From Rickettsiales bacterium (GTDB lineage: Bacteria; Pseudomonadota; Alphaproteobacteria; Rickettsiales; UBA1997): a stretch of 64,000 nt of DNA. Shown here in pieces: positions 16,590 through 22,827 of the stretch. Where the stretch lies: positions 74,071 through 138,070 of the forward strand of contig JAGNLL010000003.1 in assembly GCA_017999675.1 (NCBI GenBank). The letters are read 5' to 3'. Position 1 is the first letter of the stretch; each line of letters opens with the position of its first letter. Both the position numbers and the translations under genes were made by a program. Below the pieces are notes generated by a model that made no database searches, was not told where the DNA came from, and saw only the letters and a program-made list of their open reading frames with translations.

Positions 16590-16605
16590 TTTAATTTTTT
16601 ACTTG

Positions 16606-16713
16606 AATAGGTCCCCGAGCAAAGGACGAAGTCCGTCGAAAGAGGGGCCCGAAGCGAGTACTTTCTTCGGGCCCCTCTTTCGACGGACTTCGTCCTTTGC
16701 TCGGGGACCTATT
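16606..16713. repeat. palindromic element family A, copy 1 (108 bp)
   Basis: Near-perfect inverted repeat TAGGTCCCCGAGCAAAG...GAGGGGCCCGAAG-loop-CTTCGGGCCCCTC...CTTTGCTCGGGGACCTA, lying between purK and the ureohydrolase gene. Confidence 0.95.
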
Positions 16714-16717
16714 TGAT

Positions 16718-22694: not shown

Positions 22695-22713
22695 GGAAAC
22701 TGTTTGTAATTAA

Positions 22714-22819
22714 TTAGGTCCCCGAGCAAAGCGCGTAAGCGCGTCGTCGAGGGGCCCGAAGCGAGATCCTGTCTTCGGGCCCCTCGACGACGCGCTTACG
22801 CGCTTTGCTCGGGGACCTA
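22714..22819. repeat. palindromic element family A, copy 2 (106 bp)
   Basis: Same termini and GGGGCCCGAAG core as copy 1. The internal arm segments differ but remain mutually complementary. Confidence 0.95.
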
Positions 22820-22827
22820 TAAAGAGT

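Follow-up and report, generated by a model that had tools for sequence, protein, structure and literature searches.

A REP-like family of palindromic repeats built from covarying hairpin arms in uncultured alphaproteobacteria, and its possible GIY-YIG nuclease partner

Introduction

Several classes of short palindromic repeats populate the intergenic regions of bacterial genomes. The REPs and REPINs associated with RAYT transposases are short hairpin units present in tens to hundreds of extragenic copies (Bertels & Rainey 2011, PMC3116915; Nunvar/Ton-Hoang work cited in PMC3733652). The CGTC REPs (CGTC-1 to -4; Di Nocera, De Gregorio & Rocco 2013) include the Neisseria dRS3 and the Rickettsia RPE-4 and RPE-6 repeats and are found mostly in Alphaproteobacteria, mostly as head-to-head dimers, downstream of genes (PMC3733652). 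They are defined by a stem of 8-9 bp whose first pairs are A/T, a loop of 4-5 nt, a CCA tail and a CGTC (or TGTC/CCTC) tag at one end of the stem-loop, and they "apparently lack a dedicated transposase" (PMC3733652). RPE-1 to RPE-10 (Ogata et al. 2000, 2002) belong to the genus Rickettsia, and two later accounts describe them as inserting in frame into open reading frames (PMC10969869, PMC3733652). Bacterial MITEs are represented by Correia/NEMIS, RUP and Nezha (review PMC10969869). Palindromic repeats of the CGTC REP and RPE-like kinds have been catalogued since 2000-2013 without a known propagation route.

Here we describe family A, a palindromic repeat from a window of 64,000 nucleotides, which is the whole stretch of DNA analyzed and corresponds to C17:74071-138070 of the genome G000. 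This source genome (1.505 Mb, 22 contigs, 41.6% G+C) belongs to a Rickettsiales-labelled uncultured alphaproteobacterium, and its source runs are wastewater metagenomes. All genomes compared are metagenome-assembled genomes (MAGs), and because repeats break MAG assemblies, the family A copy numbers and absences reported below are lower bounds. Logan contigs from the source metagenomes also break at the family A repeat. A search of RNA runs yielded none that contains this organism.

Results

Three copies of family A in the window

A sequence-only reading of the window had proposed three palindromic copies with shared ends and core. These copies do exist, with conserved spans that are one to two complementary A/T bases shorter than it had drawn them, and have the following features.

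16608..16711, no strand: family A copy 1, a 104-bp head-to-head dimer of two identical arms with the module GGAC-GAA-GTCC and the linker GTCGAAAGA
16608..16624, plus strand: terminus T of the left arm of copy 1, TAGGTCCCCGAGCAAAG, whose CCCC block covaries with GGGG at 16644-16647
16624..16634, plus strand: mini-hairpin module P2 of the left arm of copy 1, GGAC-GAA-GTCC, with a 4-bp stem and a G-N-A triloop
16635..16654, plus strand: linker and inner segment S of the left arm of copy 1, GTCGAAAGA-GGGGCCCGAAG
16655..16664, no strand: central loop of copy 1, CGAGTACTTT, its sole asymmetric part
16665..16711, minus strand: right arm of copy 1, an exact inverted copy of the left arm
22715..22819, no strand: family A copy 2, a 105-bp dimer with the module GCGC-GTAA-GCGC and the loop CGAGATCCTGT at 22762-22772
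49190..49285, no strand: family A copy 3, a 96-bp dimer with the module GC-GAA-GC and the loop AAAGTACTCG at 49233-49242

All three copies share both termini and core. The 17-nt terminus TAGGTCCCCGAGCAAAG is found six times without a mismatch on the two strands of the window, against 0 in shuffled sequences, and the 13-nt core GAGGGGCCCGAAG six times against 0.56 expected. The variable segments between terminus and core read as first quoted, each mirrored in the opposite arm, and the lone G-T exception is indeed the one in copy 3, where a single T:G mismatch separates the arms (GTCG versus GCCG). The loop of copy 3, AAAGTACTCG, is the reverse complement of the copy 1 loop CGAGTACTTT, again as described. 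Copy 1 folds into a 47-bp hairpin of -66 kcal/mol (z = -16.6).

Copy 1 lies 6 nt past the purK stop codon and 19 nt ahead of the start of an arginase-family gene, and copy 2 lies 8 nt past the stop codon of a hisH-like gene and 20 nt ahead of a methyltransferase start. Copy 3 occupies the divergent spacer between a pstS-like gene and bamA, a spacer that is empty in the congener G035. The genes that flank family A are ordinary housekeeping genes, including purK, hisH-like, pstS-like, bamA and uvrA. The suggestion that the copies expose a loop ending in CTCG toward transcription was not borne out, since the 15 co-directional copies of the source genome comprise six that start with CGAG, five that end with CTCG and four of other kinds.

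The centre of family A dimers in this genome is nearly never a perfect palindrome, whatever the module. In nearly all copies, AGATCT or AGTACT has CGAG on one side and A(A/C)AG on the other. This asymmetry could be a common ancestral one, or perfect palindromes could be avoided.

Census of family A and of other hairpin families

A genome-wide census had been suggested as a check on the three copies; carried out by terminus search, it gave about 30 copies in the source genome, including 27 complete dimers of 94-106 bp, together with halves and remnants. A total of 63 arms was counted in the 1.5-Mb genome. The other forms are a right half alone (C4:30741), one arm-deleted copy, one remnant and two copies interrupted at contig ends; in addition, an inside-out pair is present at C15:200120-200290. 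The terminus census of this genome revealed no longer, autonomous element bounded by family A termini; the orphan termini are halves, contig-end breaks or remnants. In Rfam, family A gives generic hairpin noise (miRNA precursors, RRE) far under the gathering scores.

Within the genus, the distribution of family A is patchy: most of the 41 genomes have 0 termini, whereas G008 has 161, G035 67, G000 54, G032 39, G015 11 and G014 10. An exact-word scan of 185,579 species genomes returned multi-copy matches in freshwater "Rickettsiales" or "Alphaproteobacteria" MAGs only.

Hairpin elements with at least 18 paired bp number about 220 in the 1.5-Mb source genome and fall into several families (example sites C5:13794-13915, C17:7472-7551 and C17:7880-7952). 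Two of these families rival family A in abundance, GGTTGAGCGGAGTCGAAACC with 61 units and GATTGCCACGCTACGCTCGCAATGAC with 71 units, and the GGACGGGATTTGTAATCCCGTCC family has 28 copies. At C1:10990-11150, a solo family A terminus, CTTTACTCGGGGACCTA, adjoins another palindrome family, CTCCTTCAAAAGGAGGGG ... CCCCTCCTTTTGAAGGAG. A repeat of about 115 nt (CAGACAGACTTTGGAAGAACTGCGAGAGAAAGCTCTCCACC...) was also observed at G035:C152:1-137 and at many contig ends of G032, G035 and G014; it shows 98-99% identity at more than 20 places, often contig ends, and could be another mobile element or the end of an IS.

The arm as the basic unit and its two covarying stems

The family A arm is about 50 nt long and reads TAGGTC[CCC]GAGCAAA-[mini-hairpin]-GTCGTCGA[GGGG]CC-CGAAG. 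This single arm, and not the 45-bp hairpin, is the basic unit of family A, because solo arms, half elements and inside-out dimers all occur. The half element and the inside-out pair of the source genome are therefore a singlet and the other type of dimer, respectively. An assembly artefact was considered for both and rejected, as G008 carries many solo arms and at least eight inside-out dimers next to at least seven standard ones.

The variable segment of the arm is itself a small hairpin, with modules such as GGAC-GAA-GTCC, GCGC-GTAA-GCGC, GC-GAA-GC and GCAC-GCA-GTGC. Covariation was analyzed in 110 distinct arms from six genomes and involves two stems. In the first, P1, a 4-nt block of the terminus pairs with a 4-nt block after the linker, and the two blocks match in 103 of the 110 arms, in the states CCCC:GGGG (59 arms), CCCT:AGGG (34), CATC:GATG (8), CGTC:GACG (1) and TCCC:GGGA (1). 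The second stem, P2, is formed by the module, which is a perfect hairpin in 107 of the 110 arms compared with 6.3 on average and at most 16 in shuffles. There are 37 distinct modules with stems of 2-5 bp and loops mostly of 3 nt, and stems and loops combine freely. G-N-A loops account for 79 of the 107 hairpins and the remainder are mostly G-N-R-A, always read from the terminus inward. In a gap-free alignment of 20 arms, 99.4% of the cells are paired, with double changes at five of the eight pairs; the pair score of this alignment was reached by 0 of 500 shuffles, and controls with slid pairing collapse. The sequence of the P2 stem is free to vary provided that the hairpin of each arm stays.

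The compensatory variation noticed in the window is therefore real, but it lies within the arms and not between them, because palindromy between arms requires neither P1 nor P2. In silico, a lone arm forms P1 and P2 weakly (z about 0), and an unmatched dimer adopts a four-way fold (z = -9.2) in which both mini-hairpins are extruded. G-N-A triloops closed by a C:G pair are a hyper-stable DNA motif. Together with the lack of orientation bias, these loops point to a structure that acts at the DNA rather than the RNA level.

Matching between arms

Both arms carry the same module in 23 of the 27 dimers of the source genome, spread over about 12 module types, and its copies look arm-compensated because most dimers have one P2 version in both arms. 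The four non-matching dimers comprise three chimeric copies (C1:20239, C11:2615 and C8:40431) and one with a linker difference. In the sister species G032 and G035, matched arms were found at two of ten sites. A family A copy common to these two species at an orthologous site differs in the central loop alone. The sequence-only reading had offered selection for a hairpin of about 45 bp between the arms as one explanation; the other eight G032/G035 sites are unmatched and arms also occur solo or inside-out, which speaks against such selection.

Its second explanation was that one arm is templated from the other. Such templating, which could proceed by template switching in a quasi-palindrome, fold-back repair or inverse duplication of a single arm, would keep the arms complementary and agrees with the presence in the source genome of so many module-identical dimers of different types that share one asymmetric centre nonetheless. 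In addition, family X, described below, occurs as monomer and as dimer at one spacer, showing that arms can duplicate in inverted form. However, templating is not needed, and copying between arms cannot yield palindromy within an arm or G-N-A loops. Heterodimers predominate in G032 and G035, chimeric copies exist in the source genome, and amplification of a few homodimer lineages would give an identical picture. Arm-to-arm templating is thus compatible with the matching seen in the source genome, but we regard it as unlikely. "Compensated palindrome arms" can arise as a by-product of modular hairpin units.

Association with GIY-YIG nuclease genes

In G035, a gene on contig C10 encodes a 97-aa GIY-YIG domain protein (PF01541, 62.6 bits); among proteins of solved structure, its closest relatives are 1ZG2 and 1YWL of UPF0213. 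The gene is bracketed by family A dimers, one ending 41 nt upstream of the start codon and the other beginning 6 nt beyond the stop codon. A homologue with 79% identity is bracketed in G008 by the CATC variant of family A, and this genome, with its 161 termini, has the largest family A amplification. Of the three GIY-YIG genes in the source genome, one is bracketed by the 61-unit family and another by the 71-unit family, whereas only 1.9% of all genes in this genome have a hairpin element on either side. Across 54 GIY-YIG loci, a strict unit motif has a density of 3.4 per kb within 250 nt of the gene versus 0.17 per kb beyond 400 nt, a difference of about 20-fold.

Metagenomic homologues of the nuclease (45-64% identity) are bracketed by units composed of a stem, YGAG(C/T), an optional mini-hairpin, TCGAR and the complementary stem'. 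The simplest of the bracketing units have C-GNA-G at the place of the family A module, and P2 is an expanded form of the C-GNA-G hairpin of these simpler relatives (stem-GAG-C·GNA·G-TCGA-stem'). A distant GIY-YIG clade is bracketed by (C/T)GTC-ATTCCC...GGGAAT-CCAG units, which fit the definition of CGTC REPs (PMC3733652). Bracketing of this CGTC type was found in the genus studied here and in four unrelated lineages, represented by Ignavibacteriales, a Woesebacterium, an Omnitrophota MAG and a 5.1-Mb genome. Of two deep clades of the nuclease, one is bracketed by GAGC...TCGA units and the other by CGTC-type units. A tree built from 56 nucleases requires 13 changes (minimum 7) of the flank-family label versus 35.5 when labels are shuffled (0/200), a clustering that is inflated by near-copies within the genus. 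Repeat type thus tracks nuclease phylogeny, and the bracketing holds for family A in G035 and G008 but not in the source genome.

The source assembly contains no GIY-YIG gene flanked by family A. Likewise, the source metagenomes yielded no match to the G035 gene at 80% nucleotide identity or above, and G032, G014 and G027 have no close homologue of it. Family A in the source genome may accordingly be an orphan, be served in trans or have a partner that is unassembled.

UPF0213-type GIY-YIG proteins gave at least about 8,000 matches in a protein search. Among the matches listed, identities of 65-80% extend across Ignavibacteriales, Omnitrophota, CPR, Margulisbacteria and Cloacimonas, and such identity between unrelated phyla suggests frequent horizontal transfer. 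In the literature searched, we found no report that ties GIY-YIG proteins to REP, REPIN, MITE or RPE repeats.

Two other enzyme types were considered as partners and rejected. The RAYT/Y1 family (PF01797) has no match in G000, G014, G027 or G035, and Y1 genes are present in 16 congeners, all of which lack family A. The DDE_3 domain of IS630-type transposases (PF13358) is absent from G000, G027 and G032 and present as fragments only in G014 and G035. The distribution of both DDE_3 and Y1 in the genus is unrelated to that of family A.

The GIY-YIG gene might itself be a selfish, free-standing endonuclease of the homing type, for which the repeats are landing sites spread by recombination, slippage or another enzyme. 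Its sequence conservation between unrelated phyla, its location on many short contigs, as is seen for mobile genes, and its constant position between repeats would suit such a gene, as would the 63 well-conserved arms that the source genome keeps without a cognate gene. However, the gene is usually single-copy per repeat family whereas the repeats number tens to over 100, and the two genomes with the cognate clade hold the highest copy numbers. The correspondence of clades and repeat families at deep branches fits an enzyme-substrate pair, yet it is also compatible with homing. On this evidence a homing origin seems quite unlikely.

Genomic position and site turnover

With approximate gene calls, all 27 dimers of the source genome are intergenic (0/27 inside an open reading frame). 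The 26 sites classified by spacer type include 15 co-directional, 10 convergent and one divergent spacer, as compared with 893, 204 and 198, respectively, among all spacers of the genome. Family A is therefore enriched in convergent spacers (10/26 versus 16%) and rare in divergent ones (1/26 versus 15%). One end of the element typically lies 5-14 nt past a stop codon, and the flanks follow the AT-rich, palindromic consensus TTTAA|TA...TA|TTAAA. An integron attC-like nature was considered and rejected, as the copies are dispersed among housekeeping genes and not arranged in cassette arrays.

Comparison with the closest species revealed the presence/absence polymorphism that the sequence-only reading had proposed to look for: at least 15 of the 26 sites have an empty counterpart in at least one of G032, G035 and G014. 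About three of the 26 are co-occupied by family A in relatives, with differing junctions or modules, and spacers that hold family A often hold other palindromic families in relatives. Base-exact empty sites from which a target duplication could be read were not found for the purK spacer in 14 congeners, for the G032/G035 sites against G014 (flank-join BLAST) or for the source-genome sites against three relatives, because the spacers have diverged or been re-used by other families.

The purK/arginase spacer (window 16590-16717 and its orthologues) is 15-130 nt long and empty in G032 and G035. It holds five palindromic families across five species (G000, G033, G015, G034 and G011), which marks it as an insertion hot spot. 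The copy 2 spacer (window 22695-22827) contains in relatives, in place of family A, family X, GTCATCC-TGAGCTTGTCGAA-GGATGAC, as a single unit in G014 (C3:74560-74900) and as an inverted dimer in G035 (C85:34800-35180). This spacer directly documents a difference between monomer and dimer.

The start of copies shortly after stop codons and the preference for convergent over divergent spacers would also be expected of a functional RNA or DNA hairpin kept by the host, such as an mRNA 3'-end stabilizer, an attenuator, a terminator or a protein-binding cruciform, in which selection for the long hairpin compensates the arms. The matched dimer is an extremely stable hairpin, and secondary roles of this sort are on record for REPs (PMC3733652). 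However, purifying selection on random insertions into 20-40-nt spacers leaves the same position after stop codons. Arm matching is gone at eight of ten sister-species sites with the intra-arm hairpins retained, and the orthologous spacers of close relatives are empty or hold unrelated families, so no gene needs family A. There is no orientation bias with respect to transcription (6:5:4) and no Rfam match. The stem is followed by about two T residues, with TTAAA flanking on both sides, which is not a classic intrinsic terminator. Maintenance for a host function is thus very unlikely as the explanation of family A.

A classical MITE derived from a DDE insertion sequence (IS630/Tc1-mariner type), with TA insertion and duplication and the whole arm as terminal inverted repeat, would account for the TA...TA ends, the AT-rich palindromic flanks and the patchy distribution with lineage-specific sites, but it is highly improbable given that DDE_3 presence does not follow family A, that no longer element is bounded by the termini, that solo arms and inside-out dimers are unexpected from cut-and-paste transposition of an element with terminal inverted repeats, and that no TA duplication was read in spacers diverged or re-used by other families.

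Discussion

Family A is a new REP-like family, and it is very probably a selfish repeat of the REP/REPIN kind, intergenic and non-autonomous. From gene context, a GIY-YIG protein may be the enzyme that mobilizes or maintains it, a proposal to which we give slightly less than an even chance. The overall account, in which an arm-unit repeat of the REP/REPIN kind is combined with putative GIY-YIG mobilization, is in our view probable. More tentatively, UPF0213 GIY-YIG proteins could be dedicated partners of family A, of the GAGC...TCGA units and of the CGTC REPs (dRS3, RPE-4/RPE-6), each clade spreading its cognate G-N-A-capped unit. Such proteins and repeats would then constitute a second REP/REPIN-type system that is RAYT-independent and non-HUH.

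In the proposed mechanism, the GIY-YIG protein would recognize the folded family A arm, probably as single-stranded or extruded DNA, and nick it, so that copying or recombination of arms and dimers could begin. Arms and dimers would enter AT-rich sites located immediately 3' of genes, much as RAYTs supposedly serve GTAG REPs. Propagation would be limited to arms that retain P1 and P2, which would produce the covariation. The palindromes of about 100 bp in the window are head-to-head dimers of family A arms.

The two covarying stems of family A define what must be recognized, and its relatives bracket the gene of a 97-residue nuclease that is amenable to expression and to assays on defined oligonucleotides. 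If the proposed partnership is true, it explains how spacers come to be filled with hairpins in uncultured Alphaproteobacteria, CPR bacteria and other organisms with compact genomes, represents a GIY-YIG-based counterpart to the RAYT-REPIN system and offers a marker gene for annotating this class of repeats. Confirmation of the nuclease link would answer the open question stated in 2013 about the missing transposase of CGTC REPs; should the link fail, family A would still be a well-characterized new REP-like family.

Compared with the described systems, family A resembles MITEs in its size, terminal inverted repeats, TA ends, intergenic location and folding into RNA/DNA hairpins. Unlike MITEs, it has no parent IS or DDE transposase, and its arms act independently, as solo arms and inside-out pairs. 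The likeness to Rickettsia palindromic elements seen in the sequence-only reading holds in part, for the Rickettsiales-labelled host and the REP/RPE-class behavior, and fails for location, with 0 of 27 copies in open reading frames. Palindromes of about 100-150 bp, a Rickettsiales-labelled genome and many families per genome are common to both. Family A differs in being entirely intergenic and in its host, which originates from wastewater and lake samples and possesses genes such as purK and hisH.

With REPINs, family A shares inverted doublets that form one long hairpin (the 27 head-to-head dimers) and covarying stems, as well as the occurrence of homo- and heterodimers, of head-to-head and tail-to-tail dimers and of singlets. 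As in the REP-RAYT system, repeats of one family stand on both sides of their single-copy enzyme gene, and several such pairs are possible per genome. In contrast, the family A termini read TAGGTC... without a GTAG tag, the carriers have no RAYT (Y1/HUH) gene and the bracketed gene encodes a UPF0213 GIY-YIG protein. The unit also differs from a REP in having a second, hypervariable mini-hairpin with a G-N-A loop.

Like the CGTC REPs, family A is alphaproteobacterial, occurs mostly as head-to-head dimers, lies downstream of genes and is without RAYT, and units of the CGTC architecture bracket a sister clade of the same GIY-YIG family. Family A has CGTCGTC directly 3' of the mini-hairpin, but the hairpin so tagged is outside the size range of CGTC REPs, with a P2 stem of 2-5 bp and a loop mostly of 3 nt, and it has no CCA tail. 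Thus, family A groups not with the CGTC REPs but with the GAGC...TCGA units, which flank nucleases of the other deep GIY-YIG clade.
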